The position numbers and the translations under genes are program-made. Source: Schmidtea nova (Eukaryota). From it: DNA of 64,000 nt. The notes beneath the pieces were generated by a model. The model made no database searches. It was not told the origin of the DNA and saw only the letters and a program-made list of their open reading frames with translations. Every line of letters starts with the position of its first letter. The first letter of the stretch is position 1. Location: the NCBI GenBank assembly GCA_044892505.1, contig CM097883.1:318370001-318434000 (forward strand), given 5' to 3'. This document shows, one piece after another, positions 4,288 through 64,000 of the stretch.

Positions 4288-5913
4288 AAGAAAATAACTT
4301 AATTCATCAAAAGAAGATTTGTAAAAATATTAGTTTTGACATCGTTCAATTTTTGGAATTTTAATGAATATATTAGTATCATTTCGGGTGTATTACAGTA
4401 CCGTTAGCATCTAAGTAATATCATAATAAGTATTTTATTAAAACTAGGAAACTAGTTAATGTCCAAGACTAATAGCGAAAATTCATCCGACTACAACTAG
4501 CTTACCTTTAGAAATCGCATCGAATATCACATTAAACAACTTTATAATAATCATATATAAAATTTCAATCTGTTCGTCCGTCCGTCCCACAAATATTATT
4601 TATTGATTATTATAATTAAAAAATCAAATTATTTTTTAATTTAATTTAATGTTTTAGATATTTATTTAATATATTGCTGAGTTTTAAGGAAAGAATTAAA
4701 TTTATGTCAAATTTTCAACAGTTTTATTATTTTACTTCTGGTTTGTTTATTTATTAATATCACAAATTTAATGCTTACTGTCGATCCGTTGCCATCAATA
4801 TCTAATTTTATATAAATTCAAAAAAATTTGACGGACTTTCTATACAGCTAGTTATCTTTTTAGTATTTAAAATTTTGGCTGAATATTCTTTCAATATATT
4901 CTTTCATTATGGGATATATAGAAAAAGGTCCGTAAAAACTCCAGAGATTTATATTTATTGTATTTATACAATTCCGATTGGCAATTAAACCGATTGCTAC
5001 TATGTAATCAATGAAAGTCGACTGTCATTTTCTCTGTAAAATTTTAAATCTAATGGCTAATTAAAATTTTCTATTTCATATTTGTTTTAGACAATATAAA
5101 TTGATTTTTAACTTTTCAACTTTGCTAGCATTTTCAAATACAATTTAGCTCTTGATTTAACACAGTGAGTCGATTAACAACTTTTGCTGAAAAAGAAGGA
5201 TATTTACATTAGGAAAAGATCATACAAGTTTATATTTCTTTAACATGGAATTTTTTCAATTTTCTTTATCTTAATTTCTAAAACATCTTTAGAATTTGTT
5301 GGTTAAGAAATACTGACTGATTGATTCTGAATTTATTTTCACATAATTTTGTCAAATATTCTAATTTCATTTTATTTTATGCTATAGAATCTAATGTATA
5401 AATTGAATAAATAGACTGTGGCGTAGCGATGGTGAGAAGCAGGAGGCATATGTCTCCAGGTGACAAAACGAAGAAGAGATTTTTTTTCTACCAAAGAATA
5501 ACTTATTTCTTAGTAATAAGTAAAATTCGTTCATTTAAAATTTTCATTCTAATAAAACTGAATTTTCTATTTTATCTGATGTATATGCCTAAATAGAAGG
5601 CATGGGCTCCGGAATCCAAAATATGTAAGTAATTCCCTCAGTTTTTATTAGTTAAAAATAGAAAATGTCCTATTCGCCTTAATACAAAGTTTAACTGAAA
5701 TTTTATAAGAATCTTTGCTTCGTTCTGTTAATATCCATTAAAAATATACATATTCAAACAATTTTAAATTTTCTTCAAATGTAATTAAATTATTTTGGTT
5801 GGTTACTCTTTTTCTAAATTTCATAAATTCGTCATTTTTGACAAATCTTATAATAAATCGTCGATGACGGAAATAGTTTTAATGATTCTAGCATGGAAAT
5901 TTGATCTTTAATA

Positions 5914-6241
5914 CTAAACTAATTTCTCCACTGGCGATATATTTTAAAGTTTTTTAGAATATATAGTATAAATCAATATTTTTTTATTTATTTTACATGA
6001 ATTTTTGGCTCAGATTTTCAAGTGTTTGTAAGTGCCACAAATTAGTGTCAAATTATTAAAAATTATTGACTCTTTTAGTCTAAAAACAAATGCATATAAA
6101 AATATATTAATATGGAAAAGAATGAAATATTTTCCAAATGTATAGCTGTTATTTTTACATTATAAAAACTGTAGTCATGTTATAAGGTGCTTCCAAAAAT
6201 AGCGAATTGCTAGCTTCATTGCGATATTTTATACGCAAACC
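5914..6241 (+). repeat. 328-bp direct duplication (second copy 6680..7007)
   Basis: Near-identical segments from CTAAACTAATTT to ACGCAAACC. Confidence 0.95.
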
Positions 6242-6405
6242 TTCACTAATGTGATCCTAGATAAACTTATACCAATACAATAACAAATTTATTTGAGAAG
6301 GTATAACATGAATTTATATGCAAATATCATTTCTTATTTTCGCACTTTCACCGTCACAATTTTAAATTCTTTCACAATCTAAACTTCTCTATATGCATTT
6401 AATAA

Positions 6406-7039
6406 CCCTTTCTCTGCGTCAACCGTACGAAGCCGTAAAATATTTTTGTGGTTCGTATGCTAGAACCGGTTTAATACGCAGTTTAAATATATGTTTTATA
6501 TGTTCAATATGTTTTCTTTACCTTTATGTAATGCTTATAAATAAAACGCAAGTTATAAACAAAATATTTGTTTTTTGTTATTAAATAGTAAATTAACTTC
6601 GGATACCGTGTATATACGCATGTACATCATACATAGTGCGACAAACGTACTAATCCGCGCGCCTGAAAAAACGCTAATGCTAAACTAATTTCGCCACTGG
6701 CGATATATTTTAAAGTTTTTTAGAATATATAGTATAAATCAATATTTTTTTATTTATTTTACATGAATTTTTGGCTCAGATTTTCAAGTGTTTGTAAGTG
6801 CCACAAATTAGTGTCAAATTATTAAAAATTATTGATTCTTTTAGTCTAAAAACAAATGCATATAAAAATATATTAATATGGAAAAGAATGAAATATTTTC
6901 CAAATGTATAGCTGTTATTTTTACATTATAAAAACTGTAGTCATGTTATAAGGTGCTTCAAAAAATAGCGAATTGCTAGCTTCATTGCGATATTTCATAC
7001 GCAAACCAGAGCGCTTAAACACACGCCGCAGGGAAAGGG
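6406..7039. mobile_element. piggyBac-like MITE
   Basis: TIRs CCCTTTCTCTGCG / CGCAGGGAAAGGG (1 mismatch); TTAA on the right, ATAA on the left. Confidence 0.7.
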
Positions 7040-8779: not shown

Positions 8780-10013
8780 CGTAGTTCGTTCAATAATGCC
8801 TCGGACTAACGAAGAAAGAAATACAACACAAAAAACTAAACCGACTTTTATTGAACTATATCAAATATTAGTTAGGAAAACATTTAATTATGTTTATATA
8901 ACTACCATTGGCAGCAACCAGCTTATTCCATCAAATAACCAAATCTTGAGATGCATCAGCAAAAATGTCTACGAAGCTATGCAAACCATTGTTCAACAAA
9001 TTGCTGGAGTGCATCTGATGTCTCAAAATGATGTCCACGTAATGCTTTCTTCAGGTGCTTGAACAAAAAGAAGTGGCTCGGAGCAAGGTCCGGGCTGTAA
9101 GGTGGGTTTTGGAGAAGTCTAAAACCACTCTTTTCTGTTGAACATCGTGTAACATTGCTTACATGGACAGGAACATTATCAACAAGGAGCCAATGTGGAA
9201 CATTTCTTGATTTCCGTTTCTTTGCACGGCATTCCTCAACCAATTTGTCATAGTATTGACCATTTATTGTTTGTCCATTAGGCAAGAAATCTAGATGAAT
9301 GACTCCACTTTTGTCCCAAAACACTGAGAGCATCAGTTGTTTTCGATGTGAGTTGTTACTTCTCATCTTCAGAGGAAGTTTCTCTCTACAGATGATTCCC
9401 GTTTGGTTTCAGGTAAGTATAATGAAAGAAGTATCTCGTCCTCAGTAACGATATTATTAATAAATGCATCACCATATTGATTCAACAGTTGCAAATTTAA
9501 CAATGTGCTGTTGAGGCGCATTTCCTTCGAGTCAGGAGACAGATACTTTGGAACAAATCGTGAGCATAATTTGCGATAGCCTAATTTCACAATGATGTGA
9601 CAACTGCCAACACTTATTTTAAGTAATTCTGCAATTTCATCCACATTAATTCGTTTTTCAGCTCGAATAATCCTGGAGCACACTTTCATGGTCATGCTTG
9701 AATAATGATATCCAAAGATATATTGTGGATCTAGGACATTTGTTGTCATATGCAATGGTCATATCACGAAATATTTCATCAGATTACTTCTTTAAAAGCA
9801 CATAGAATTTTTTCACACTTCTGTATTCCACCTCATCCATTTGACAAAAAAATGAAATGTGAGTTAGTTTATGAATTATACGTACGTCAGCCAATCAGAT
9901 TATTTAATTTATGCAAATAAACAAACATACGTGTAGGTGTTAAAACCAATTGGTTTGATTGGTTTATCATGTTTCTTTCTTAGTCAGTCCCAGGCATTAT
10001 TGAACGAACTACG
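8780..10013 (-). mobile_element. Mariner (DD34D) element, TIR to TIR, inactive
   Basis: TIRs CGTAGTTCGTTCAATAATGCC at both ends, TA at left, 1234 bp. Transposase 9755..8977 is frameshifted near 9368, with motifs IVTEDE, SVFWD, LVDNVPVH and PPYSPDLAPS(H). The third catalytic D is replaced by H. Confidence 0.95.
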
Positions 10014-10462: not shown

Positions 10463-11025
10463 CAGTAGCGTAACTATGGGCCCGCAACTGCGGGGGGCCA
10501 GGTAAAAGGGTGCCCATTTTTAAACCTGAAAAAATGAACTATTTTAATTAATAAATGCACAGCAGAAATCCGGGAACCGAAACTCCTTGTAAACTCCTTA
10601 GCCTTGTAAAATAAATAAATCATGCAGGCAGGCAGGCAGATGATGTGGAATATTACTATTGATGCGCGGTCGGCGCATATTTTTCTAGGCTTTGATTTAA
10701 GCTAGTGAGCAGGGACTCGAAGGCAAATTATAATCGCCAGATGACGTTGAAATTTGCAGTTAATTCACTCAATTAGTTTCACTTTTCGTCTTTGATTTCC
10801 ATCTTTGATTTTCATCTTTGATTTTTCATCTTTGATTTTCATCTTTGATTAAAAATTAATAATAAAATAAAATATCATAAATTAAAATCATTAAAATGTA
10901 TGCCTCAAAAGTGAGTCGATAATTTGAAACATAAAATTGTCTATCAGATTGTCATCGACTGTATGGATGGGGGGGCCATTTTGAAAATCTTGCAGGGGGG
11001 CCCAGAATATGAAGTTACGCCACTG
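10463..11025. mobile_element. hAT-type MITE
   Basis: TIRs CAGTAGCGTAACT / AGTTACGCCACTG; internal roughly 13-bp TTTCATCTTTGAT repeats at about 10785..10850; TSD only partly matched. Confidence 0.75.
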
Positions 11026-11846: not shown

Positions 11847-12537
11847 TTCTTGCTTGCCCTCTTTCTTTAATTGCCATAGTTTTGCTACTCAGGTGCCAAC
11901 TATTTCTTGCAAGCTGATAAAAACAGCAGGGATCAGTGTATCCATATCTTTGTAAATCTTTTTAAATTGTAAACACAACAACAGATTTTGTTAATTGTAT
12001 TATTCATTAAACATTAGAAAAAGTAATTGTCTTGTGTTCATTTATTTATAAGAACTAGCAACCGACTAAATATAAATCATAATATTGCATATTATTATTT
12101 ATAAAAATAGTTTTAATTATAATTGGAGTCAGCTGTGTTAAGATTATCAAATCCCCACATTTGATCTTAACACTTTTTGTTGGGCCCGCCAAATAGGCTA
12201 AAACAACAAAAATAAAATAAAAGTTTAAAATAATAATAAAATAATAATAAAATAATAAACACAAAAATAGCAATAAAGGAAAAATTAAAAATAGAAATAA
12301 AATAGTAAATAATATTTAATAAATTTCCAGCAAAAGGAAATTTTAAAAATAAAACGGAAACAAGCAGTAAGGGGGGCCTGAAATAAGAATATTAAGAATG
12401 AAATAGATTAATAGTGCAAATAAATAATTAATTACTTGAAAAACCAGGACCACCCAGCGAGAAATTGGAAAAGGAAGTAAAATAATATTTAGATTTAAAT
12501 AAAATAGTAAAAACACTTTGATGGACGGTCTGATCCT

Positions 12538-12580
12538 GATTGGTCAATCTGACCAGCCGGATCAGTATAAATACCGATCC
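12538..12580 (+). promoter_or_regulatory. Inverted CCAAT box plus TATA box within an inverted repeat (family X copy A)
   Basis: GATTGG at 12538; GGATCAG-TATAAATA-CCGATCC; same position and sequence in copy B. Confidence 0.55.
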
Positions 12581-13599
12581 GAAAATCATAACAAAAAACG
12601 GTAAAACTGTTAACTGTTATAAAAACACACTTTTGAATTTTTCAAAGTTTGAAGATACTTTTAATCTACGCAAGATATTGTAAAAACTTGAATCTACCCT
12701 CGGAAAAACTACGAAGTAAATTTTGTTTATTGTATCATTGTTGATTTTGTACCCGGATTTCATTATTAAATTATTTAAATGTTGAATTTTGGTTTTTTTT
12801 TAATAATTTTAACCATGCATATAGACATGCTTCCTTGGCTGCTCACGCGGCGAGGGAGCCCGAGTCGTCGTTGTGGGGCTTCACGGTCTCACATGGCGGT
12901 TCCACCTTTTTCTGTTTTAATATTTTAGATGATTCTGATAATGTCAATTTATAAAGCTGCGTTTGAAATTTTTAGCATTTAAGGTTGCACAATGGATGAG
13001 TCGCTGAATGTGAAGGGAATAATGCAGGGGGCTGCCTGATGGTAAGGGACATCTCCCAGGTACCAGGTACCTTTTCCCAATGTGTGATCGGAATGCATGA
13101 GTTACCGTTTCAAGAAATAGATGAGAATAAAATTTACTAGTAAAAAATCACTCGACAATATACCCAGATATAAACAAATTCAAATAGGGCAAAGTACGTC
13201 TAACTAGTCGAACGAAATAAATGCGAAAACTTATGTGATTTTCTGATAATAGACTATTCACCTGATTTCAGTGTTGAGGTTAGAGATCGATCGTACACAC
13301 CCACTGATCCATGATACAGCGGCCAGATCGCATCAGACAACGTTGGAATGTGATTAAATTCGAGTAAAATAGCATTATCTTGATCGCTGTAAATAGCGCA
13401 AGAATTCCCCAATAATTCGGGAATTTAAATTTCATAGTTACCTGATCGCTGTATATAGCGCAGGGCCAAGTGACGAATATTGTATTCCGACCGTGGTACA
13501 TCGCGGCGAAGATAATTTGAATAATTAAAAATTTAGCATATTTTCTTTTGCATTAAATAAATAATATCTATGATAAGTTAACAAGTTCAAATAGCACAG

Positions 13600-13999
13600 A
13601 TGGTAACAACAAAGATAAATCATATGCTAACCGAACTCAGGAATTCGGTGAAGACGATCAATGAAAAGGAAACGTCTGACATATTCAAGGACCTTCCACC
13701 TCGAATTTTTCGCACCATCAACGCGCAAGTTTACAAATGGCGCCGAGGGTTTAAATCGGAGATGTCCATTCTCCATTTGGGCAGACAAGAGAGATCATAT
13801 ATTCTACCGGGGCGGACCGGATTGGCCAATTTCGAGAAAACCCTATTCAAAGAGATTTGGACAGATGGTCATCTTGATAAATGATGTAGAAGGACGACCG
13901 AATCAGATAATACTGGGGACACATCCCACGAAAGGAATTGCGCAAATTAGGACTGCAAGCGTTCATACCGCGGAAATCTGTCGGAAGAGAATGCAATGA
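13600..13999 (+). pseudogene. Family X ORF2 (copy A), one frameshift, unknown function
   Basis: FKDLPPRIFRTINAQVYKWRR, then in a shifted frame CPFSIWADKRDHIFYRGGPDWPI; aligns to copies B and C. Confidence 0.7.
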
Positions 14000-14242
14000 T
14001 GGACAATCTCCATTTTCATGGGCCAGGCTTCGAAGAATGCCGATTAATCATGAATTACACATCCTATTCCGACGACCTTAACTCTGACGATTTAATCATA
14101 ATAAATAGCTTAATAAAGATCATAGTGTTGATGTTCTGTCTTTGTTGTATTTTGTTCTAACAATAACTAGTTAATTTTAGTAATTCTAATTAATACTTTA
14201 ACGTAAGAGTAGTATACCATTAAATCTGAATAAATTGCAGAA

Positions 14243-14821
14243 ATGAATCTAGAATTAACTCAGAGAGAACTGGAAAAGATGTGGCGAATTCGAAGAGCCC
14301 AGAATAAGGAATTGGGTTACCTCAAGGAAAGTTTGTCCAAAGCGGAAGCACAAATCACCTATTTGCGTAAAAGTTGGTTCGCTCCTGCTCGAATGAAAGA
14401 GCAGATTGGAAAAACAGAGCGAGCGCAACGGACAGCTGATGATTACAGGATGGAGTGGGAAGCCACCAAGATCGAGCTCCGCAAGTGCCTTCATTCTGTA
14501 ACCGCCTCGTACATTGAGCGGGAATTGAAAGATCAAATACGGCCAATCACATACCAAGAATGGACTGCTGAGAAGAAAATGGGAAGCTCAATTGGTACGG
14601 ACGTCGAAGGCCTTACCGAAACCCGTGCCGAACCCAATTCGCCAATCAGCTCTAACACCCCGATCATCAGTACGCATCAAAAGCGTAAGCGAATCGGACA
14701 GAAAAGGCGTCGACAACGAAAACTCTTCGCCCAAAAGATGCAAATTCAGATAGACGCTCAACATAAATTATCCGAGGAAGAATTGTTAAATGAGGTGTTC
14801 AGTGGATTTTCAGTGATTTAG
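14243..14821 (+). CDS. Family X ORF3 (copy A), 192 aa, coiled-coil-like with Arg-rich tail, unknown function
   Basis: Intact ATG-initiated ORF with homologues at 18800..19384 and 63390..62977. Confidence 0.75.
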   Translation: MNLELTQRELEKMWRIRRAQNKELGYLKESLSKAEAQITYLRKSWFAPARMKEQIGKTERAQRTADDYRMEWEATKIELRKCLHSVTASYIERELKDQIRPITYQEWTAEKKMGSSIGTDVEGLTETRAEPNSPISSNTPIISTHQKRKRIGQKRRRQRKLFAQKMQIQIDAQHKLSEEELLNEVFSGFSVI

Positions 14822-15958
14822 TAGGGAAATAAATGAATGGTTACAATGTGTTGTTATTTTTGCTATTTCTTTTACGTGTTGACTTAATTTAAATTTAAAA
14901 GACATAAATAATTATCAGAGACATGTAACCATAAACTTCTCGAGATTTTTACACAAAGTAAAGTAATGAACTAATTGCAATAAATATAAAAGTTCGTACA
15001 GATTCGTTAGTTTACAAATAAAGCGTAAGTCCTTCTAACGGCAGCAATGAACCCGTAAACATAAATGGGGAGTAGTACTATAAATGGTGCTCACCTGTTC
15101 ATCATTGTTTAACCACCCTGCGCATCACCAACTTGATTATCCAGGGAAATGATCAAGGGAAATGATCAAGGGCGCTTGAGTGTATAGTTGCACATTTTAT
15201 GTATGATCATGGATGAGGGATCCCTAGTCATTGTTAGAACATTTTCATCTAACCCCTCCATGAACCCAGCATTTTATTAAAATTAAAAAACTCAGTAACT
15301 TGACATCTGTAAGGTGATGTTGTGTGGTGAGGTGCTCAAATGCAAATGATTGTTTATTAATGGTTTCGTGGGCGAGTGTCTGTGTAGATATCTGAGAGAT
15401 TATCGAGTGCTAATTTCGCTATAGCAATGTGTTGTATCATCAAATAAGAAATAATACTTTAAAAAGAAAGGATCAAATTTAAAACACAAGAAAATAAAGA
15501 AATCGTGCAAAACATCACCAGGAATTAAAAAATAACTTTTGAAGACATGACCTGGGAAGGTTGGTCTAAATGTTAAAAACATGTTTGGAAATTCCGTCTA
15601 TCATAATGTTGGGCCTGCAAAACATCTAAATAGGCAAAAAACATCTATGATTAGTTAAAATAAAAAGTTAAATAATGAATTAAATTTAATCCTATATGCC
15701 AACCGGAACTAAAGATAAATCAAGTAAATCCTCATAAAGAAAATAATAAATTACCAATTATAGGATTATACCAATCATCAGGAAACCGCAGGATTAGAAA
15801 ATCTAGAATGAAAGAAATATTAAATAATAGCAAATTTAATAAATAAAAGTACTTTTTACTAAATAATTTATCGGAAAATTTGACCACTGCAATCTGAAAA
15901 TAAAATAAGGTAAGAATTATTAAAATAATGAGATTTACTTTGAATGGCGGCCGGATCC

Positions 15959-16000
15959 TGATTGGTCGGTTCAGCCAAGACAATCAGTATATATACTGAT
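15959..16000 (+). promoter_or_regulatory. Inverted CCAAT box plus perfect 18-bp palindrome containing TATA (family X copy B)
   Basis: CTGATTGGTC followed by ATCAGTATATATACTGAT at 15983..16000. Confidence 0.55.
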
Positions 16001-18161
16001 CCAAAATCTCATTATTTCAGACTATTATTTTGAGACTAAGACTTAATAAAGTGTCGACTCAACAGAAACTTTATTTAATAAAATCAACTTAATGTGGCGA
16101 ATTACTCTGAAGATTTCTGAAGAAAGCTATCCAGTAATTATTTTAATTTTGTTATGTTAATATGATTTTTGGGTTTAAATTTTCTTATGATATTTTATAT
16201 ATTTATAATTTATTATAGATTTTAAAACGCTACATCTGGAGCTAAATGCTACTAGGGCGCAATCCGCGGCCGTGGAGCTCAGTAGTTCCACGCCACGGTG
16301 AGTGAATTCAAATAGGTTATTTTAATGAATTTAAATTTTCTATGTGAATAGACAAAATTGGTAGAGAATTGCACATAGGGCAGTCAACATAGCGTTAGAG
16401 CAATACCACCTAAATTTTTCAAATAGCCTCATTTCAGGACATAGACGATTCAAGTTAGCGTCACACTGAACGAGAAGTATGGATTCAATACTGAGCACAT
16501 TACACTAGCGATGTATTCCACTACACCATAGAATGTTCAAGGTGTGTTTTAGTGATAGTATTGCATGAGTTCAACACCTTACAGGTACAAAACATAGAAC
16601 AACTAGATAGCGTTTGAGTTATACCCAGACAGACAAAAATGTCGCGATCACATCTGAGACATACAATTTCACAAATTTTTCGATTTCAGCTAATCTGAAA
16701 CATACGAAGCATTTTGATCGTTGACCCATAGCATAGAAAATCCCCGACAGAGTTCGATCAGCACGTGACCAATCGAAACGCGAGATTTGGGGGAAACTAC
16801 ACTCAAGTGATAAGTACAGTTAATAAAGGAAAATGGTAAATTAAATGGGTTAAACGTGACGAGGGAATTGGTTACGATTTTCGTCCATTCGCAAGGGGCC
16901 CGAGAGGTTTATAAGAGGGGATAAATATCCCAGAAAGATGTCTCTAACAAAATATTTTGATTTCAAGCCTTATCCACCCTGATAGTCCTGTTAGAAGATG
17001 GTTAAAAAATTAAAATATTATACAGTGGGAAATGGAAGGTACAGAATAAATATACATGTGGTTCGGATGGCAACGACAATTCAATAATCAATGGAAAATA
17101 TCAACTTCAATGATATTATGATTTTAGTGATTCTATATGACGATATTTTACTGTTGATCTTTTTTGACTTTTGTTTTATGATGATAATTATCTATTGTAC
17201 ATTCATGACAATTATGTGATTAAGCTGTGACTATCTGACAATTTTTATTTTATGGGATAATTTTATTTTGTTGCTGTTAATAAAATATTGTTGACAATTA
17301 ATTTTTGTAATGACAATTTATCATTTGAAAATTTATCATTTATGATCTTGCGAACATATATTGACATTTTTTATGGTGATGGACAAAATTTTATATAATT
17401 TTGATAGAATATTTTGTTTTGAAAATATTTTATGTAAATTAATTTTTTTAACTATTTGTAAAATGGATTATATTTTCATTTATATTTTAATATTTTAATT
17501 CAATAAATTATAATAGTAATAAAATAAATAATACAGATTGTTTAAATAAATTAAAAATAAATAAATTCCTGTCTGTTTAAATAAATTATATTTATGACCT
17601 ACAAAGGTCAGCAAAATGAAATAATATTCCAAGGTTATAAAATAATTTTGAAAACAATTTCAATCAACTCAAGAAGCAAAATAACAATCATTATTGACAG
17701 ATAAAGTGCCTTAAAATTTAGATTATAAACTGACTGATTTTTCAGTCAAATCACCCATAAAATCTTTGCGTAAGAAGAATTTCATAGTTGCTATCGACTA
17801 CTGAAATAATAATTTGGAGCATACAAGATATCGAGCTCAGAAGGCATTCACGCATATATATTTACACATTACAGGAACAACATTGTGAATCTGTAATATT
17901 TTTTAGGTAATTTGTATTTGTTGTATTTGAATAAAATCTTTTAACCAGTATTATCTTATTTATTTATAAATGATACCAAGTTAAGATTCTGGGAACCTCA
18001 ACAGTCAAACGTTACCGCAATATGCATTGGGTGGTAAATCACGGTTATTTACCAGATTATAAAAATTTAAAATGTCATTTCTGACTATAATGATCAATGC
18101 GAAAAATAACTCAGTACGTTTTGTGTTAAACTGAATAAACTGTTTTAGAACGTAATCGATT

Positions 18162-18680
18162 ATGAAAATGTCTAGAAGAGATGTCCTTTACCGAAAATCC
18201 CTGTCAAAGAAGGGAGATCATATGAGCTGAAAGACCAGATATAATAAGTCACGACTGAGCTCTCTCAAGAACCTTCCATTCGAAATACTGCAGTAGGTGC
18301 ATCAGCGGATGTGGCAGTGGAGAAGAGAGTTGGACACCGCCTGCCCGGTCACTGTATGGGACCACCTGCGTCATCACGTGCGGTATCGCGGATGTCCTAG
18401 TTGGCCGATCATTCCCAGCGAGGACTATGAGCTTGGATATGCAGACTGATTTGTTCTGCTCCTGAACGAAGACGGGTTCCCAACCTCGATGATTTATTGG
18501 GGATATATCACAGCGGTGACACTGAAGGAGATCGGGTTCCACTTCTGCACAGAAATCCACATGTTACGAGAGGCTCAAAAAAAATCTCTGGCCGTTTCAA
18601 CGAACTCACCCAGCCCCATCCGGTCAAATTTGCAAATGCCGTCAATTTTCTCATATCGGAATAAACTTTCGGCGGATTGA
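18162..18680 (+). pseudogene. Family X ORF2 (copy B), three in-frame stops
   Basis: LKNLPFEILQ*VHQRMWQWRR...CPVTVWDHLRHHVRYRGCPSWPIIPSEDY in one frame. Confidence 0.7.
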
Positions 18681-18799
18681 AATCAATTTTGTTAATAAAT
18701 TTATTAGCCCGTTGAGCTTTTTCTGCAATTTTAGTCTTCATTACTATTTTATATGATTAACAGAATTTACAAGTCACGATAACCGTTGAGTTTTTTTAT

Positions 18800-19384
18800 A
18801 TGGAACTGAAATGTCAAACATAATAAGGAGTTCAGATAAGTTATGCCAGCAAAACCAAGACCATCAAGTGTGGGAATTACAGCGGCAAATAAAACGGCTT
18901 ACCACCGCCAACGAGGAATTGAAACAGAAATGGTTCACCCCGGAGCAGATGAAAACACAGATGATGAAAATTTCGTGATTATAAGGGGCGTTAACGGAGA
19001 CCAAAACAGAACTAGGCGCGGTACAGTGAAAACTCCAAAACTGTCTAAATACCGTGACCAAATCGTTTATTGACACAGAGCTCAGAGCCCTCATGATGGA
19101 CAACAATGGTAATGAAAGATATTTCCGTCGGAACGAATTGAGAGGGTCTTCAGCCTACACCTCCGGCTTCCATCCAGCTCGAGTCAAGATCTTATGCTAA
19201 TCCAATTATGTTTCAACCACTGCCAAACTCAGGAATGAAACCATTGATCGGTTCAAGAAAAAGACGATTGGGTGCTAAGCAAAGGCGGCGCAAACGCGAA
19301 TTCGCCCGACAACTAGCTGTGCAAGTGGATTACCTGAGCGAACTACCAGAATTAGATCTTTTAGATGACATCGTGTTAATTTAA
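18800..19384 (+). pseudogene. Family X ORF3 (copy B), stops and frameshifts
   Basis: LKQKWFTPEQMKTQMMK...ELGAVQ*KLQNCLNTVTKSFIDTELR and RKRRLGAKQRRRKREFARQLAVQVD, colinear with copy A ORF3. Confidence 0.75.
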
Positions 19385-20812
19385 AAAAATTAAATAAATT
19401 AGTAATAATTTTTCGTGTTGAGTTGTTTCTCGGGTCATCAGCAGTTTTCTTTTAATAATTAAAGACGGGAGTGGTTGGAGTAGTAGCTGTCACCCTAAAC
19501 TAGAAAGCCATTTAGAGTATAGGACAACCGCAAAATGAGCTAAATGAGAATTGATAGGACCGAACATGAAGATTGACAGCGTAAGACCTTCCATCGGCAG
19601 CAGGAATCTGTTGAAGAAAATAAATGAAGAGTTGTTTCGGTAATGAAGCTCACCTGTCCATCATTTTTCCGACTCCGTATACAGTTCCAACCTAGCTACT
19701 TAAGGAATAGTTAGGGGTATACGGGTGCGGTAGATGTTTTTTTTGTATGGTTGTGGGTGAGGTATCCCTAGTGCACATAACTAAATTCCAAATTCCATCC
19801 ACAAACCCATCAATAATATTAACTACAAATTATTCTTCGTAATAATTCTATTAAGTATAGAAAGAGAAAGGAAGTCCTAAAAATCTAGGAAAAGCAAAAA
19901 AATTATTCAAAAAGAGCTTTTCAAATTGCTCATTAAATTTTTTTGAAAAAAAAGCAAAACATATTTCGTTCTTGATAATGAATCTTATTTTACATTAACC
20001 AGTCCACAAAATTGTGGCTTCTAAGTTCATAGAGATTTATTAAAAAATTAGTAAAAATTAGTCCAGATGAAATTCAACTTAATTTTGTTCGAAAGAGTAT
20101 CAAAGAAAGTAAATTCATTGTACAGATATTCAAGGGTAATGAAGAAAAACAACTCATTATAACAGAATTCCCCATGTGTAACTAGTCCAGTGATAAACTT
20201 TGATAATGCTGTTTTACCCATCAGATTATAACAAGAATCCAATATTATTGTTTTTCATCAATTTGTAGTACGGTTGAAATTATATTTAATCAGATATTGT
20301 TTACATTGTGATATTGTTGATAAACTAATATATTGTTTTATTTGAATAGTTTGAACAAGTGGAGTCAGAGATAAAGCGAAAATCCATAACTACTATTGCA
20401 TCGACTTGTTATTTAAATCCAGCATTATTATTATTACTAGTGTGTTATCTGTCAAAAATGACGGAATTTTTCGAAATAAATATATCTTTAAAACACTTTT
20501 TGTTTGAGCTTTCTATCTTAAAAAATGAGAAAAAAAACTGTCATGTAAAAAAAATTCATCAAAATTGGGAATGAGATAAAACGTACTATACATCGTTGAA
20601 AAGCTTTTGAAAAGATTTTTAAAACACTTTTTGTTTGAGCTTTCTATCTTAAGAAATGAAAAAGTTGAGTTAGCGAAAACAGCGTTACACACACACAAAC
20701 AAACATACATGGGAAATTATATATGTAGATTATTATTCAATGGTGCAAACAACACAAGTTTTCAACACTGGAAAAAGTATTAATAAGATCGTTAACACGC
20801 GAAAAATTATTA

Positions 20813-20859: not shown

Positions 20860-21772
20860 TCATTGACAAATATTGCAAGTCTTCTTACATAAATCAGCGA
20901 TATGGCTTACTGAGCAATAGTTTTGCCGCCAAGATTCACACAGTTCATCACCTTCAGTGTTCTTGCACTCACCAGCAGTCTTGATTGTGGTGGCTTCTAA
21001 ATTGTTAGAAACACAAAACGTATAAGATAAATTGTATCACCTTTAGAGGATTTGTTACAAAATCCACAGCTTTCTGGACAATTAGTTTTCATATGATCTT
21101 CATAATTTCTGCAGTACCCTTGATCAACCCAGGAAATACAAACTTCAGCTGTTTGTTTATTTCTGCAATGAGTATTGACTGCAGATGAAGAGGCTAGACG
21201 AAAACTAAAATAACATTTATCTAAAAGCAAATATACTTGTTGTATCACTGCCAATACAAAATCCACATGCCTTTGCACAGTTCTCCTTCATATATTCTTT
21301 GTTTTCCGAACAATAACCAGTAGATGTCCATGAATTGCAGGTTTCATCATCTTCGACGTTGAGGCATATAATTGGAGTCGTTGTTGTTGCTAGAAATTAT
21401 CGGGCAATAAATAATTTCTTAATTTACTTAATACTTTTCGGCAATACACACAAATTACAACTTTTTCGGCATAAAACTGCTCTATTGAGATAAGATTGAC
21501 ATAGTCCTCTTTCTTTCAAATTTTCACAACTTTCTTCACTGTCTTCGTTAACACATTCCGCAATTGTCGTTGACTCCATACTTGGTAAGATTACTGTTGT
21601 AACTTTTGGTTCATTACATAAATTACAAGAATTTGAGCATCGTTGACCTCTGTCAGTATTGCATTGATTTCGACGCACTATTTCCGTGCAGATGTGTAGA
21701 GAATCGCGATCTTTACATTCATTTATTAACTTGCTGTCTTCTATTTGACAAATTTGACAAGTTCTTTGGCAT
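20860..21772 (-). CDS. Astacin-ShKT exons 11-14 (end of ShKT 6 through ShKT 11, and stop)
   Basis: Exons 21772-21435, 21389-21237, 21193-21041 and 20996-20860 separated by 45, 43 and 44 bp GT-AG introns; six-cysteine ShKT patterns. Confidence 0.92.
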
Positions 21773-24700
21773 CTTAAGTATGTTATCAGTTATGATTCTA
21801 TACTACAATATATAATTAAGTATTTCAAATCATTTGTTCTCAACCTTTTTATTAGAAACTGACAAACGACATTAAATAATTTGGTCGATCAGAAAGGAAA
21901 CGTTGATGAAAAAGAGTATTTTATATAATTTTAATAAATATAATTTTTGAAGATTTGTATGATATTTCATAACTTTTATAATTTTTATAACAAATCATAA
22001 TCGAAAATTTTCACTCAATAAAACTTTGCAGCAATGACTTATATTGTTATTTAACTCATATTTGAAGGATATATAAATTTAAAATATTACATAACACAAG
22101 TAGCCAATTAGAATCCAAAATAATTAATCAAATTTGAAAATATAGAGAAATAAGTAAAGTTGAAAAAGACCTAGAAGGTGGATCAAAGTGCCAAAAACTT
22201 GTTTGGAAATTTTTTCTATCAAAATATTATGTATATGAAATTCTTCGTAATAATTCTGTCATGTTGTCAGATCGTGTGACCGTTGTAAGGTCACACGCCC
22301 ATTCGATATCAACATGGTTCACTTGAGGTTCAGGGTGTGTGGCGTAGACTAGCATGCGATGTTACACATTACAATAATGATTGTTATTTCACATTGATAG
22401 ACTGTGGTCCCAGCCGCTACTCACTGTGGAGGAAAATAAGATCGGAAAATGCAAGAGATATTTGTGTAAACATAATGCAGATATTCAGAGAAAGAGGAGC
22501 ACCGGAGGAGCTTCTACTCGACAACAGCCCGGCGTTTCGATCAAACGAGCTTGCTGATTTGAGCAAAAGTTGGAATGTGCAAATTCATTTTAGATGCGCG
22601 TATAGACCACAAGGCAATGGATTACCTAGAGGAACCATCGCACCATCAAGCGAAATCCAGCAAGGTGTCGGGCAGATCCTTTAACAATGGTGCAATGGTA
22701 TAATCTGGCACCAACTGACGGAACTGATGAGGAATCGTGCCCCACATGAGATTGTTCAAATATCCGCGGAGACAAGAAGTCGGCGTCAAAACAGGAGGCA
22801 TACAGCGAGGGGACAGAGTTTACGTTAAACCCTCGAATGTCAGATGCACTACTGAATGGCCAATCGGTGTGGTTACTAATCTGGTGGAGGATCAGCAAGT
22901 CGAGGTTAACGGCGTTCTACGACATATAACAGATGTTCGTAGAGTGGAGACACCTGAGTGCGAACCCGTGGAAAGGCAACGATCCACTCGCGTACGGCGT
23001 CGTCCTGGATATCTGGATGATTATGATTATGTAGATGACTACACCAGCGACGATCAAGAGTCTGTTTCGAAAACTACCAGGGCTGATGATCTCGAAATCA
23101 GGGCGGAATGTGGTTTTAAAGAAAAGAGATTGTTTTAATAAGTGGAAAAAAGGTAAAAGGCAGAATTTAAAAATAACACTGTGGTAGAAATAAAACTTGT
23201 GTTTATCAAATTATTCAACACATCTGTTTTCATTTTTAAAGGAAAAAACCTCCGCCAGAGCATTTTGTGCTTTAGCAGGATTTCGCCTCCTGTCATTGTG
23301 CAAAATTCGCCTATATATGATTCCAATTGAAAGATTTTTGGCACACTTGAAGGCTTATGTTGATGAATGGACGGCCCAGTTTAAATATCAGTTGTCACCA
23401 AATATAAAAGTAGGCTAAAGCCTTCGATCACTTATACTTTTCCAACCGTTTTGAACACTTAAAAGATAGAATCTTCCGTGCACATTAAAAACTTGATATA
23501 AAAGGAATTTAATTTCTAATAAATTCGTTGATCATGTCTACAAATTTGATTTGTCTGTGATGGGGTGGTGAATAATTATTTGGTTTTTGAATTCATGTCC
23601 AGTTTACTTTACGGACACAGATTACTCCATGAGAAGATGAAACTTGAACATCATTGTGATATTGAACTTTAAAAATTATGGAATTGTCAAAAAATGTTAA
23701 GATAAAAAAAAACAAAAAATAAAAGTTTCAAAATGTTTCGAATAATATTCACAAAACAATTTTTGATTTATAGTCTTACAAAAATTAATGTGAAAATTAT
23801 TGAATTAAAGTTTAGAATAAAATTTAATAATTTGAAACTTTGAAGAAAAATACCGGTGAAATTGCACTTCAAGGACGGGTCCCGTTTTAGTAAGGCATGT
23901 CCACTAAAGAAGCTCACAAAATTTCAAAAATGCACAAATTTTTTATTTTACCACATATCGTGATAAAATTAAAATAAAATCATGATAAAAAAGTAAAAAG
24001 CAGTTAACATTCTGGACATTAATGATTAGGTAATTGAGTTAACACGTTTTTAGAACACTAAATGATCTTTTGTTTGAAGTGGAGAAATAAAACATGAAAA
24101 TATAATGATAGGAACTTTTTTTCCTTTTTCTTCATGCGTCTTTCTAGCTGAGCTTCATTTTCGGTAGTTCACCCATTCTCATACACTTTTGCTTTGAGAT
24201 GAGCCCAATAGGGCGAATCTGAGGTGCACATGAAGGGTTCATGGATTTTCAAAAACATATTATATTTTTGATTCAAATACAATCCAAATTGACATTGACA
24301 TAATCACAGGAGGCAAGGTCTGGCCGAAGATGTAATGTTCCCTGAGGTAATGGTCATCAAAAAATGGTAGGAGGTGCTACTGCAGATGTAAATGGACCAC
24401 CAATGAGGACAATCCGCACCTTGATACGGCAGCCCACACCAATACTTTATAGCAAAGTTTTCCACGCTATTTAAGAGATATCTCACATGGAACATTGTGC
24501 CTTTGATCTGAGTAAACGTAGTATCCTTCCTTTTGTGAACCAGTGAGTTTGAAGTATGCTCCATCATTCAATACAAACTCTTTCTTTATTTTCTCAATGT
24601 AGAAATATTTTTAAAAATTCAATTTTCTCAGACTGACGAATTTGTTGAGCAGTGTTTATTATAAGGGCTTCCACTCTCTTTCTAAACTACAAAATGTCAC

Positions 24701-27700
24701 GTGAATGTGAAATGTAAATTGCCTACTTATAGCAGACTCAATTTGGAAATGGTGTGTAACACTGCTTCCTACATAGGTGTGTTTAATCTTTCACAATGAA
24801 GATTATTAAATGTTCTACTTTTTTTTCTGAAGCAAAAATTCATCAAATGATTCCATACTTTCTATAATACTTTATCAGTCCTTGTAAATTGTTATTTCGC
24901 TAATGGTAATGCTAAATGATGCTCCTTTCAACCCACAAATAAATTTTAATGAAATAAAAAGCTTTCATTAGACTCACTAAGTATTAAAGAGAAAAATCGT
25001 TGTCAATAATGTAGTATTTCGTCACAGTTATTTGCTAAGAACTTTATAACAAATAATCCAAAAACTTATATTATTAAAATCTTTAATCGTCTTCATCTTT
25101 GAACTTTTTCGATTTCATAAATTTTTATATTGTTCAGACAAAAGATTAAAAATATTTTTATCCCTTGTCTGAAAAAATGAAACTAACAGAAACTTATAAT
25201 CTCAACGTGACGTAACTAAGTAAACGCTACAGAACGTACCTATTAGCAAAGCCGGCATGAGCAGTGCATAGACCTCGTTGATTAACTGCATCGCATACAT
25301 CATCCGAGTCTTCGTTTTTGCACAGTTTATGGGAACAGAAATTGCAGGATTTTGCACAATGGTATTTCATGGTTTCTTTGTATTTCTAAAAAATTAAATT
25401 ATATCTAAATCAATAATTTCCATACAATCATTAATATGAAAATTATTGATTTGAATAAAGAGATCAAAGGTGAAACCAAAAGAAAATTATGATAAATAAT
25501 ATCTAATAAATGTAACTATGGTTACGAATTAAATTTAGAAAAATGAAACTTGCACATGCATGCTATCTCGAGTTACGTGGTACTTGAGTTATAAAACATT
25601 TTGCACTAATTTTGAGTCTTAAAATATAAGGCTTTGACTTACAAATAACCATTTAATCTTGTAACTTAAAGGTTGCCTGCATACAAATACATGTTTTATA
25701 TTAATCGGTTACAAAAAAATGCTACAAAAGCTGAATCATCAAATTTCACATAATATTACAAAAAAAATAAACCATAAGAATATTATGTAAATGTCATGCA
25801 TTTGTGTTAAGTCGTTGCATACAAATGAAATAAGCCTCTCCACCAAATATCAAACTATTACAACAGCATTTACTACTTGCTCAAATAAGAACTAATTCGC
25901 ACTGTTTCAACTGTCAAATAACACAGAAATAAGTATTATTTTATAATTGAACATTTTCACATAATAACATATTGCAGCCGGGCCCGGCGCCACGGGGGGC
26001 ATTTGGGGGAAATGCCCCCTGAAAAGGGAAATGCCCCCAAAACCGAGATGTCTTAAAAAATTTAGGTGTCTATTTTTCTGTTAATGAGCTGTTAAATGAG
26101 CTGGCTTCGCGTGGAGATGTTGAAGCGTTGGGACATCTAAATAGTGGGAAATTTCTTCAAATGTGTGAATACACGCTTGATATTGATCCAAAATTGAGCG
26201 AGATTTCTCAAACGATACCTGCTAATGCTAAGTATACTTCACATGAAATGCAGGATTTGTTAGTAAAGGTTAAGGAACATTCTTTAACTCCTCAACTTCT
26301 ACAAAATCTGTCACGAAAGATTCTTGAAAGACTTAACTGCAGCCTTATTATGAGCACATTGAGTAATGCAGATTGCGAAGACGAAAATAATTCCATGCAA
26401 AATGGCAATCGTCAAGTGTTTTTCGAGATTTTGGATGAAGTAATTAATGAATTACAGTCACGTTTTTCCAAATCAAACTGCGATTTGATTGCGGCGCTAG
26501 ATGCACTTTTACCTGGTAACAAAAACATTTTCCTTCAGGAAATAAAGATTGAACCATTGCTAAGTCTTGTAGCTGCAAGTGATAAGAAATTTACTGACAA
26601 ATCCCTGACAGCTGAGATTGTCGTCGCGAAAGAGCTAATTAACAAATCATCTATTGCCAATTCAAAAAAAATAGATGTTCTTGCTTCATTCCTGTCAAAT
26701 TACAGAGATGCATTCCCACACTTTTATCACCTTATCTGTTGCTCTCTTCTGTTGTCGGCTTCCACAATAACATGTGAAGCAACATTCTCAATATTGACGC
26801 GTTTAATGTCTCCCTACTGAAAGTGCAAGGCTGTGCAAAGAAAACTAGACCTGGCGTTATTAGCTTATGAGAAGGAAGAATCGAAGCTCGTCAGTTGTGA
26901 ATACGCTCTACCATTGTTTCAGGAGAGTAGTCGGCGTCTGATTTTGTAAAGCCTGCTTTTATACTGCTGTTGAACACATGCTGCATGTGTTTTTTATATT
27001 CTTGTATTGTCAAAGTAGAATATACCAATATTGGCTTTTATCTGTCAATATTTGATATATGGATGAGCAAAGGGTTCTAAATATGATGATAAATATAAGA
27101 TGATACTCGCAGACAATAAGACAAATGTCGATAGGACCGTTTTTTTTGTAATTTAAAATTTAAGGGGTTGCCCCACCAGTATCAATAATTGACCCCCCCC
27201 CATTGAATCATTCCTGGCGCCGGGCCCGATTGCAGCAAAGACTTATTTTGTTATTTATTAATTATTTAACATTTAATTAATGCTGCTACCAAGAAAGCAC
27301 CAAAATATTACAAAAGTATTAAACGAAAACGAAAAGCATATACAATGTCACTGTATTCAGTGTTTCAATCCATGAAAGTGTGTGTGTCACTATGATTATA
27401 GAACTGAAATGTTAGTATGCATGAAATCAGAAAAGTCACAGAAAGAATTTTTAGTTCCTTCATAAATGGCTCATTTAATGGTGGATAATAGAGAAGCCTG
27501 TAGACTTTCTGCTCAATGTTTGGCTATAACTGCTTAAAACATTCAGATAGAGAAATAATGGGTCTGAGATTATAATCAAACAAAGAGTTCGGCATGCCTT
27601 CAATGATCAGTTCAAGTATATGGTGTCGGTTGAGAAAATGCAAGAAGATTATTCTTACCTGTTTCTGCAACAATTAGCATGTCTCTTATTTTTTATTTTA

Positions 27701-30700: not shown

Positions 30701-33700
30701 CAGAATTGTTTTCATGTGATGCATATATAATATACATTGCACATGTTTGTCATGTAGACTCCATTTGATTATCCAATTTTAATGAATTAACCCAATTTTC
30801 TTTTAAATAAATAAAAAATAAATAAATAAAATAATATTGAATAAAAATAAATATTAAATAAATAAATAGGAATTAATAAGAATAATTAATATAAATATAA
30901 ATAAATTAAATTTGTATAATTAAATAAAATAATAAGGCAAAATTTATTTAAAATAATTAATTTATTAAATCTGCTTCTAACAAAATTATGTTTATTATTT
31001 ATGGTACACTTTATTTATTAAATAATAAAAATTTTAAAAAATACTTATGCAAAGAATTATTTTATTAGAATTAATTTTATTTTACAATTTTTAACTACTT
31101 ACAATTATAAGTAGTAATTTTTAAAAATAAAATTAAAAAAATTTTATTTAATGCGACAGACAGAGACNNNNNNNNNNNNNNNNNNNNNNNNNNNNNNNNN
31201 NNNNNNNNNNNNNNNNNNNNNNNNNNNNNNNNNNNNNNNNNNNNNNNNNNNNNNNNNNNNNNNNNNNNNNNNNNNNNNNNNNNNNNNNNNNNNNNNNNNN
31301 NNNNNNNNNNNNNNNNNNNNNNNNNNNNNNNNNNNNNNNNNNNNNNNNNNNNNNNNNNNNNNNNNNNNNNNNNNNNTTTTATTATTAATTTTATTATTAA
31401 TTTTATTATTAATTTTATTATTAATTTTAACTACTTACAATTATAAGTAGTAATTTTTAAAAATAAAATTAAAAAAATTTTATTTAATGCGACAGACAGA
31501 GACAGTCGCGAATTAGTATTATAGATTATTCTATCTTATTATTTTATTTATTAACCGTAATGTTTTATATAATTAATTTAAAACCTGTAATGTATAAAAC
31601 ATTGTCTCTAAATAATTCTATTTTATAAAATTATTCAAAAAAACTGTAATGTTTTATAAATTCATCCATAAAAACTGTAATATTTTATCAATTTATCTAA
31701 CAAATGATATACTAATATATTTATTCAAAAAAGTTCTATTATTCAAATTTATTAAAAAAGTTCTATTTTTCAAATAAACGACAAAAAAAATTCCATTTTT
31801 CAGAATGCCCCTACTATATAATATCTTATTTGTTAAAATGACATTTTTCTAGACTAATTTTCAAACCAGCTTGTTGAATTCTTGAAACATATCTTTTCTA
31901 ATCTTTTCTACGTCCTATCTCATTGTATGCAAGTATAATGATGGCGTCGAAAAAGACAATTGATTCTCACCAATTGAGTAATTAATTTTTGAAAAGGGGT
32001 TGGAGCAGCGGCTATTCCAAAAGGTAATCGGTTAAAGAAATATTGTCCATCTTTTGTTGAAAATGCATTTTTTAATTTTGATTCATTTTCTAATTCCACT
32101 TGATAATAGACATTGATGAAATCGATCAGGATTAATATCTGTGCGTCATATAGAATATCTACCATCTCTATGTTTGGTTTTGGAAATCGATGTCCCTTCA
32201 TAATTGCATTTAGTTTTTTATAAGACACGAACCAATGGGCTAGCTCATTCTGAAATCACATTTTTTTAAATAGTTCCTGATTCTTCTATATTTTAGCATT
32301 TCAAGTACTTTTTGAGCAATATGAATAGGTAATCTTTTAGCATTACTGGTTACTGACCTTCCGCACGTGACTATCTTATGCTTAATTAATATCGTTTTCA
32401 CCCATGTCCCATTTATGCTGCATGAATATTTCCAAAAATTCTTTGATTAATTAATTTATGGTTAAATTAACCCTTTCCTATCCTGTGTCTATAAAAATAT
32501 GACAAAAAAAATTAACCATTCTATCCTCTGTCTGTAAAAAAATGACATTATTTTTGAATAGTTTATTTCCAATGCACTGTCGATTATAATTTGGAAGGAT
32601 GTCTAAGCGTTTGCGTGGTGAAGAAGTGTTAGAGAACTTTTTTTGAAATTTTATTAGGATTAGAACGGGCGGGACACATAAAATAAAGAAGATAGGAAAG
32701 GGTTAACCTCTAATTAAATTGCATTCTAAATTCATTAGTTGATTGATTTTTACTTCAGCTACTACCTGTAATCTAATATCAAAACAATTCATCATTTTTA
32801 CGGCTAACGTTATTTGCCACGAAAATCGAATTACAAATTCTAATTCAAAAGTTTTATAGAACGCAATTGCCAGTAAGTCAACTGTATATGTATTATTAGA
32901 ACATCTGAATAAGTATTTCACATAATGCTTATTCAATTTTTGTTTCATTATATTAGTTTTGTATGTTTTATTTGTTTATATTAAACCAGTAAATATGCCC
33001 TATTCATAAATTTTCGAATGAAAAAATAACTCAGCCCTCAAAGGGTTAAATAATGTTGTCCCTATGATTTTAAGTGTACTTTCGTTTGAACAAATAACTG
33101 TAATATTAGATTTTCCTATTTTATCACACATTTTTAATTTATTAAAATATCTTCGCTTATAATATTTATTCCGGTCACGATGACCAAAAGACAAATACTT
33201 TTTATTTTATTTTCTATACGATTACCTATATTAGGTCTGTTTTTTCATAAACGTTTTTAGGTGCAAATAATTTTTCTTTATTTTCATAAAATTTACTATT
33301 AATTATATTAATATTATCAATTTTATAGACTGTATTCAAGTCATTTTCATAATCAAAACTCATACATTTACAGTTATTCATCATTAATTTTTTAATAATC
33401 TCTTAATTCAGTCATTACAAAAATTTCAAAATCACAAGCATTCAAATTCAAACATTCTGTATCAATAATACACTAACTTATAACAAATTTATGGCTCCTT
33501 GCTACTTCCTTACAATTGGAAAAAAGCATACTTACTTCACTTCATTGCAAACAACCATTCTAGCATCAGCCATCAAATATTAGAATCATAGTGAACCGGT
33601 TATATACGAATCTGGAGCACAGTTTTCTGATACCCATGTATTTCAATTTGGCGTGGGCTGTACCAACACTGATGTTGAGCTTCGTTGACAGCATTTTCAT

Positions 33701-38518: not shown

Positions 38519-38553
<35 letters not shown>

Positions 38554-63822: not shown

Positions 63823-64000
63823 TTAAAACAAATTGGTCCATCTGTCAGAATTCCTCCTGCTTCGGGATTCCACGAAGTATTTAGTGCAATCGTGGGGGTA
63901 ATCTTGCTCGAGGTCAATCGGCCACTCCTGGCTTCCATGCCAGATGATCTTGTCAGTACTACTTCGAAAGAGGCTTAATGCTAGAGATCTTACTGCTGGT
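63823..64000 (-). pseudogene. Family X ORF2 fragment (copy C)
   Basis: DKIIWHGSQEWPIDLEQDYPHDCTKYFV aligns with HHVRYRGCPSWPIIPSEDYELGYAD*FV of copy B. Confidence 0.55.

Follow-up and report, generated by a model that had tools for sequence, protein, structure and literature searches.

The window analysed here is a stretch of 64,000 nt from Schmidtea nova (contig CM097883.1, positions 318,370,001 to 318,434,000). The open reading frame at 14243..14821, which we call ORF3, is a transposon gene within a lone, decaying solo LTR of a giant Ty3/gypsy element. The features of this LTR (copy A) and of two related copies (B and C) are as follows, in window coordinates.

12178..15271, plus strand: solo LTR of family A, 3,094 bp, with TG...CA ends, short inverted termini and a 4-bp target duplication
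12178..12590, plus strand: likely U3, with a CCAAT box at 12538 and a TATA box at 12566, motifs common to families A, B/D and C
12716..12721, plus strand: leader splice donor (GT at 12716) that opens intron 1; GTAA(T/A) in 22 of the 22 family-A LTRs printed, and the family-D equivalent was used in an intron-loss copy
12830..12911, plus strand: double hairpin, then a T run, within intron 1; folding z -3.8
13384..13461, plus strand: two small hairpins with TGTANATA at their tips, within intron 1; seen in 3 of 3 young family-A LTRs checked
13600..14078, plus strand: ORF2, frameshifted here, about 159 aa in intact relatives; a CAG acceptor abuts its ATG
14235..14240, plus strand: predicted ORF3 splice acceptor, ending two bases 5' of the ATG; YAG near the ATG in relatives
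14243..14821, plus strand: ORF3, 192 aa, from coiled coil to acidic helix; last codons frameshifted
within 14243..14821, plus strand: ORF3 codons 3-95, coiled coil with a kink at WFxP
within 14243..14821, plus strand: ORF3 codons 99-107, IRP(I/V)T-W motif
within 14243..14821, plus strand: ORF3 codons 114-143, variable linker
14681-14722, plus strand: Arg-rich helix of ORF3
within 14243..14821, plus strand: ORF3 codons 163-186, acidic amphipathic helix
14828..14833, plus strand: AATAAA, candidate poly(A) signal directly 3' of the ORF3 stop
15021..15271, plus strand: 3' module, conserved and structured, with a 10-nt palindrome at 15216; adjoins the primer site in full elements
15607..19812, plus strand: solo LTR B of family B/D, enlarged by an insertion; 4-bp target duplication
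18231-18677, plus strand: broken ORF2 of copy B, inside solo LTR B
18811-19384, plus strand: broken ORF3 of copy B, inside solo LTR B
62977..63390, minus strand: ORF3 of an old family-C LTR that extends beyond the window end (copy C); frameshift ahead of the Arg-rich tail
63773-63978: ORF2 remnant of copy C, near the minus-strand ORF3 at 62977..63390

The first-pass annotation had described ORF3 as similar in three copies and intact in two distant ones, A and C. The three-way likeness and the motifs quoted for it are real. ORF3 of copy A matched copy B (18919-19372) with E 5e-13 at 39-44 bits and copy C (63312-63082) with E 8e-11 at 52 bits, compared to a top score of 23 bits among 40 codon-shuffled windows. 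However, both copies described as intact are frameshifted against their nearest relatives: a 7-base gap shifts the last few codons in copy A, and a 1-base gap past the IRPIT-W motif places the Arg-rich tail of copy C out of frame. Copy B differs from its nearest relative by two in-frame stops and a 20-base gap. Nor do the copies represent distant host loci: each belongs to one of three old LTR families with high copy numbers. In a genome search with copy A, the best 150 of 9,827 candidates were scored, and the 149 besides the window copy were 77-93% identical; searches with C-like and B-like queries gave at least 150 matches each.

The LTR ends were set from twenty relatives fetched with wide flanks, and they coincide with the two end points at 12178 and 15271. 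We observed TG...CA and a 4-bp target duplication in 15 of the 16 copies that had both ends (window copy included), the exception being a 3' LTR. An exact pattern search of the genome found 823 LTR right ends with no internal region after them. Among 459 LTR left ends, 22 of the first 100 had one purine-rich flank in common; those 22 are 3' LTRs. These counts of ends suggest about four solo LTRs per full element.

In eight full elements checked, the LTR pairs were 98.5-100% alike (one pair was compared over 1,069 nt only) and were spaced by about 27 kb (40 kb in one case), the elements being 25-30 kb in size. These elements have, 6 nt past the 5' LTR, a primer site able to pair with the 3' end of a genomic tRNA-Pro. 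The same primer site was present in young C-like elements (LTR 3.6 kb, pairs 99.2-99.8% alike) and in young B-like elements of family D (LTR 3.2 kb, pairs 99.9-100% alike), and both LTRs of the family C and D elements contain relatives of ORF2 and ORF3. ORF3 was open in 15 of the 16 LTRs of the eight young family-A elements. A poly(A)-tailed retroposon was rejected by the TG...CA ends, the target duplication and the LTR-flanked elements; the same LTR-end and full-element evidence rejected a non-autonomous DNA transposon. Two other candidate LTR pairs (L160/L161 and L163/L162) were segmental duplicates and were dropped.

One element was scanned piecewise with Pfam. It has a single frame of about 4,300 codons, with the order gag-env-PR-RT-RH-IN-ankyrin and CCHC knuckles in gag. 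The env part, located before PR, is a mononegavirus-type fusion glycoprotein (E 8.5e-68), and a TRAF/MATH ORF lies with other ORFs downstream of the polyprotein. BIR, BCL2-like and dUTPase-like domains were not found in this element by Pfam at E 0.05; the Burro paper used HHpred. Judged from these Pfam matches, the order PR-RT-RNase H-IN is that of Ty3/gypsy, and by size, polyprotein layout and cargo the element is Burro/GYPSM1-like. Planarian Burro/GYPSM1 is described as about 30 kb long, with a polyprotein of more than 4,000 aa and env in frame between gag and pol; it resembles the present element in size, the single polyprotein, CCHC knuckles, ankyrin and MATH/TRAF cargo, and thousands of copies (PMC6431247). 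The TRAF ORF here is downstream of the polyprotein, unlike in the accessible Burro description, and the accessible text names no LTR-internal gene, spliced leader or Arg-rich regulator (PMC6431247).

Several observations concern the family and its surroundings. Internal ORFs of more than 1,000, 353 and 189 aa (L075:3-3167, 5258-6316 and 6395-6961) belong to no clear Pfam family, and the 189-aa ORF (L075:6395-6961) starts with a hydrophobic, signal-like stretch. At L091-L093 (G000:C1:459.61-459.66 Mb), genes for tRNA-Pro repeat in tandem every 308 bp; this tRNA fits the element primer site and has 899 matches genome-wide. In one family-A solo LTR, a 2.9-kb insertion (L032:2218-5074) with an opposite-strand frame of 663 codons splits ORF2. 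Several family-A LTRs at G000:C1:210.0-210.35 Mb have identical flanks, apparently as a result of tandem segmental duplication.

Purifying selection on ORF3 had been proposed from the window copies alone, with dN/dS as the check. We found a median dN/dS of 0.11 for 28 non-independent pairs from the eight young elements, which were chosen by LTR ends. The other frames of the ORF3 region had values of 1.0-2.8, and the antisense mirror frame had 0.17. In family A, pN/pS was lowest in the Arg-rich segment (0.04) and highest in the linker (0.38); the respective values in B/D were 0.24 and 0.64. The three family-C copies are too alike to say much about constraint; the acidic helix is poorly kept there (pN/pS 0.77). 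Stops and private missense changes numbered 12 to 94 in 30 older copies (a ratio of 0.13, with a neutral range of 0.08-0.12) and 0 to 24 in the young elements. Young copies are thus constrained and old copies are near neutral; therefore, selection acts via replication, and copies, once inserted, decay as those of the window do. The proposal held as to selection itself but missed that it acts on the replicating element, not on the host. The remark that ORF3 stays open in copy A where ORF2 is broken has little meaning, because old copies decay neutrally. We consider it nearly certain that a Burro-like giant Ty3/gypsy element carries ORF3 in its LTR as a selected accessory gene.

The divergence among the eight young family-A elements varied strongly along the LTR. 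The lowest value, 0.025, fell in the last 240 nt; the first 400 nt and the internal 3' flank both had 0.04, and the internal 5' flank had 0.07. Non-coding parts of the cassette reached 0.17-0.26, compared to 0.11 for ORF3. The cassette was 4-7 times more diverse than its flanks, and ORF3 distances hardly tracked those of the flanks (rho 0.05-0.23). From this profile we infer that U3 meets R near +410 and that the cassette was swapped between elements. Between families A and D, protein identity was 99% for RT, 91% for gag, 85% for env, 77% for TRAF, 44% for ORF3 and 32% for ORF2; between A and C, it was 94% for RT, 38% for ORF3 and 34% for ORF2, the ORF2 and ORF3 values covering alignable parts only. 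No other protein of the element diverges as fast as these two. Silent sites are saturated between families.

The organization of the LTR is shared by the three families A, B/D and C. CCAAT and TATA motifs are located at about +340 to +400, which would put the transcription start of copy A near 12590; a GT donor follows at +500 to +570, then a T-rich intron with acceptors close 5' of the ATGs. Of 37 intact ORF3 copies, 33 have a YAG at most 14 nt from the ATG (we estimate a rough chance level of about 30%). AATAAA occurred at most 44 nt past the ORF3 stop in 34 of the 37, a weak signal, as 4-57% of background 56-nt windows contain it. The promoter at +345 to +410 appears to be the only one, hence ORF2 and ORF3 would belong to R/U5. 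A second promoter was considered for the 3' module and rejected, since the TATA-like word of the window copy is missing from the 8 young copies.

Both LTRs of one family-D element (L235/L236, G000:C2:349.65-349.68 Mb) have lost intron 1 and measure 2,438 bp compared to 3,239 bp. The missing 801 nt run exactly from the donor GT to the AG ahead of the ORF2 ATG, and the relatives are 99.5% alike. Therefore, the leader-to-ORF2 splice is real, and packaged genome RNA normally keeps intron 1. A non-canonical intron, with GG at the 3' end as in L204, was rejected, as closer relatives have AG. The very young family-D LTRs L204 and L207 do have GG in place of the ORF2 acceptor AG, with another AG 11 nt upstream. 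Five pattern searches found no leader-to-ORF3 join in the genome. Contigs assembled from four runs of unrecorded kind, all from one study, had no GT-AG joint among the 15 joints listed, and contig depth in those runs cannot rank the LTR parts.

The double hairpin of intron 1 lies 240-320 nt past the inferred start and is present in all three LTR families (for example, at L154:1097-1200 and L204:2037-2114). Its folding z was -4.7 in young A and -6.6 in young C copies, compared to +0.9 for the opposite strand, and 5 of the 14 pairs of the second hairpin were kept by two-sided changes across A and B/D. A T run follows it in all 25 A-type copies and both C copies compared and is not adjacent in family D; a TATA-like word precedes it in A and C, not in D. 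The structure could be a Pol III small RNA of the foamy-dumbbell type or a protein-binding site. Foamy-virus dumbbell pri-miRNAs, as far as the accessible text describes them, are similar in being about 100 nt long, in the LTR, and flanked by a TATA-like word on the 5' side and a T run on the 3' side, as in A and C (PMC6950176). Unlike them, the present hairpin has shorter stems in A and D, lies downstream of the promoter and has no adjacent T run in D. The hairpins with TGTANATA tips were absent in the D and C LTRs checked; we take the tip word to be Pumilio-element-like.

Of the 44 pairs predicted for the 3' module, 25 had two-sided changes across A, B/D and C, a kind of count that relatedness between the sequences inflates. 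The module is likely a U5 packaging or priming signal. Its palindrome is nearly complementary to the purine-rich tract within the last 20 nt ahead of the 3' LTR (L075, L155, L205), and the match suggests genome-RNA dimerisation or 5'-3' pairing. An Rfam search gave no match at the family level.

An alignment of 40 intact natural ORF3 copies showed that WFxP-MK, ELxxC, IRP(I/V)T-W and the basic cluster are kept. In the AlphaFold model (mean pLDDT 77, pTM 0.31), helices span residues 3-43, 48-95, 104-113, 145-175 and 178-189, with a disordered linker. Residues 1-113 were modelled as a parallel, in-register homodimer with a score of 0.55, compared to 0.00 for the best of 3 controls; the runs agreed in at least 92% of contacts with pLDDT of at least 82. 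The mark that this dimer passed let through 21 of 30 microbial homodimers but none of 23 monomers; among eukaryotic homodimers, 17 of 29 passed, yet only 1 of 7 that lacked older solved relatives. It is possible that ORF3 passed through likeness to ordinary coiled coils. ORF3 is predicted to self-associate as a coiled coil; the helical model and the dimer agree with the original description of a coiled-coil protein with an Arg-rich tail. The Arg-rich motif has 9-10 R/K in 17 residues in A, D and C and falls within the modelled helix 145-175.

Tails were compared with export-signal patterns, leaving out the frameshifted tail of the window copy and L109 of family C. Only 1 of 15 family-A tails contained a consensus export signal, compared to about 80% of shuffled A tails; in family C, 1 of 5 tails did. 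In B/D, 15 of 18 tails had the pattern, but shuffled tails reached 55-95%, and the youngest D copy had no match.

Searches for relatives returned little. No ORF3 homolog was found by single-protein search (95 candidates) or with the 40-row profile (3,559 candidates, near lengths only). Two matches from a search of 1.84 billion sequences were bacterial repeat proteins aligned in low-complexity stretches only, and were rejected; Pfam and PDB-sequence matches were weak coiled-coil matches only. Atlas matches were all under 0.9. Foldseek, which the first-pass annotation had proposed to run on an AlphaFold model, gave nothing under E 0.001, and the VIA structure comparison gave nothing beyond generic coiled coils, with Z no higher than 6.8 and an rmsd of 4.8 over 96 residues. 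Neither sequence nor fold searches with ORF3 found likeness to Rev, Rec or Rem. ORF2 (window 13600-14078 and relatives) is a second conserved orphan protein, with invariant PF, WP and YxGxIP; it had no Pfam or PDB match, and its model (pLDDT 41) was unusable.

What may such a gene do for the element? The element faces the problem of complex retroviruses, because it has one leader donor, acceptors ahead of both LTR and internal ORFs, and a poly(A) candidate in the 5' LTR, and its genome RNA must stay unspliced. The reading that we prefer, at a probability of about 0.4, is that ORF3 works by analogy with the retroviral Rev/Rec proteins. Dimers held by the coiled coil would bind, through their arginine-rich helices, a structured signal in the unspliced RNA of the element, and the bound RNA would escape splicing, early polyadenylation and nuclear retention. 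Each LTR, solo ones too, would be a complete small transcription unit, from which a short spliced ORF3 mRNA would be produced early. The protein would later favour full-length RNA, which must keep intron 1, both LTR genes and the downstream acceptors. The likeliest binding site would be the double hairpin of intron 1, which varies between families like the basic helix does; the 3' module, common to all families, would more likely serve Gag and reverse transcriptase.

The Rev-like proteins are described as combining a coiled coil with an Arg-rich motif that is followed C-terminally by an export signal, and as being less than 30% identical to one another (PMC5568270). In the accessible account, HIV Rev, HERV-K Rec and MMTV Rem resemble ORF3 in small size, in coiled-coil oligomerisation as predicted for ORF3, in the Arg-rich motif and in a Leu-rich segment C-terminal to it, and the order of these three parts agrees as well (PMC5568270). 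The ORF3 message may likewise be spliced. The HERV-K Rec response element sits in the LTR, solo LTRs included, and the present LTR has structured RNA as well (PMC6916052). Unlike Rev, Rec and Rem, ORF3 does not match the export-signal consensus in two of three families and is encoded wholly within the LTR of a Ty3/gypsy element. The coiled coil of Rev is far shorter than that of ORF3. We did not file ORF3 as a member of the Rev family, because the export signal is missing in A and C and uninformative in B/D. Two further points speak against a Rev-like role: in the L235/L236 element, an RNA that lacked intron 1 at one end was nonetheless packaged and copied, and an Arg-rich segment is just as characteristic of a plain nuclear signal or a Tat-like protein. 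The comparison of the Arg-rich tail with Rev/Tat RNA-binding motifs had been offered early on as an analogy; it was a fair lead that lacked the context, the LTR of a Burro-like transposon.

The features that suggest a Rev-like role can be read in other ways. ORF3 might be an activator of the Tat/Tas type, its basic helix binding a promoter-proximal hairpin or LTR DNA and its acidic helix recruiting the transcription machinery for elongation or for read-through of the LTR poly(A) signal. We hold this to be improbable, though well worth weighing. In A and B/D an acidic amphipathic helix does come after the basic motif, a double hairpin lies at 240-320 nt past the inferred start, the consensus export signal is missing in A and C, and full-length RNA must pass the AATAAA past ORF3. 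Nevertheless, family C has no acidic helix, and the hairpin differs from TAR in being intronic and far past the start. An activator of the bZIP type is not a fitting model, as a variable linker of 30-50 aa parts the basic helix from the coiled coil. Given about the same low odds is a counter-defence or host-manipulating role of ORF3, together with ORF2, for example against piRNA silencing, with the basic tail as an import signal or a non-specific RNA grip. The fast divergence of both proteins within the element would suit such a role, as would the diversity of the cassette (4-7 times that of the flanks, with distances that hardly track them) and the TRAF and ankyrin among the other cargo; Burro is reported as a PIWI target in the part of the literature consulted (PMC8532177). 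Selection within families is, however, strongly purifying rather than positive, and template switching at the LTR also predicts cassette diversity.

Somewhat less likely still is a part in the particle or in transport, either as a nucleocapsid-like chaperone for strand transfer over the R/U5 of about 2.7 kb or as a coiled-coil adaptor between genomic RNA and a motor. A long R/U5, as the promoter position implies, the predicted long parallel coiled coil with a basic helix, and nearest folds that are generic coiled coils (Z at most 6.8) would all be expected; yet CCHC knuckles are already present in Gag, and a partner of a 91%-conserved Gag should diverge less than ORF3 does. The least credible reading by far takes ORF3 for a gene domesticated by the host, or for a frame in repeat DNA that is open without selection. 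It could appeal to 106 of the best 150 copies having no stop in the match, a set that was chosen for intactness. A chance frame is ruled out by the dN/dS of 0.11 in copies picked by LTR ends. A host gene does not agree with older copies that gather stops at about the neutral rate (12 to 94) or with the frameshifts in the window copies.

The Rev-like reading has a wider form that we regard as distinctly more speculative. A Ty3/gypsy element may have independently evolved the control circuit of a complex retrovirus wholly in its LTR, with promoter, spliced two-gene cassette, RNA response element and Rev-like switch. More than 1,000 solo LTRs would then be self-contained expression units that could regulate full-length elements in trans, and swappable alleles would form a family-specific protein-RNA code.

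As a rule, LTRs do not code for proteins, and a solo LTR is regarded as a leftover promoter. In MMTV sag and HIV nef, accessory genes do occur in the terminal repeat, within U3, upstream of the LTR promoter. Foamy virus bel2/bet likewise overlaps U3, according to the accessible text (PMC6950176). ORF2 and ORF3 resemble these three in being accessory coding sequence in a terminal repeat. Unlike them, ORF2 and ORF3 have introns of their own (a predicted one for ORF3) and lie downstream of the only conserved promoter found, and therefore a solo LTR keeps promoter, exons and candidate poly(A) signal. The LTR described here is a selected, hypervariable two-gene cassette that was kept across lineages in which silent sites of RT are saturated. 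The literature searched revealed no genes inside Burro LTRs; the figures and supplements of the original genome paper or the Repbase entry may show them. As far as our searches go, the element type is known and the hypervariable selected two-gene cassette in its LTR appears not to have been described.

Regulated export of unspliced RNA is, to our knowledge (which is not exhaustive), known only in vertebrate retroviruses. If ORF3 is Rev-like, such export extends beyond them, and the nuclear exit of the genome RNA of a 30-kb, multiply spliced element can be tested in a group of model animals. Should ORF3 not be Rev-like, its unassigned protein family, with thousands of copies, could still be mistaken for host genes by annotation pipelines.

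Besides the three LTR copies, the window contains other features. A short MITE-like element at 10463-11025 is bounded by 12-bp inverted repeats. The fragments at 8977-9758, 22289-23138, 26023-26820, 33566-34958 and 46422-47136 are presumably like mariner, gypsy integrase, hAT and Tigger/pogo. Cysteine-rich exons on the minus strand at 20900-21800 and 37600-39140 are probably from host genes; we take them to resemble ShK-domain repeats. Finally, an inverted pair of short tandem-repeat arrays surrounds an AT-rich core at 60900-61683.
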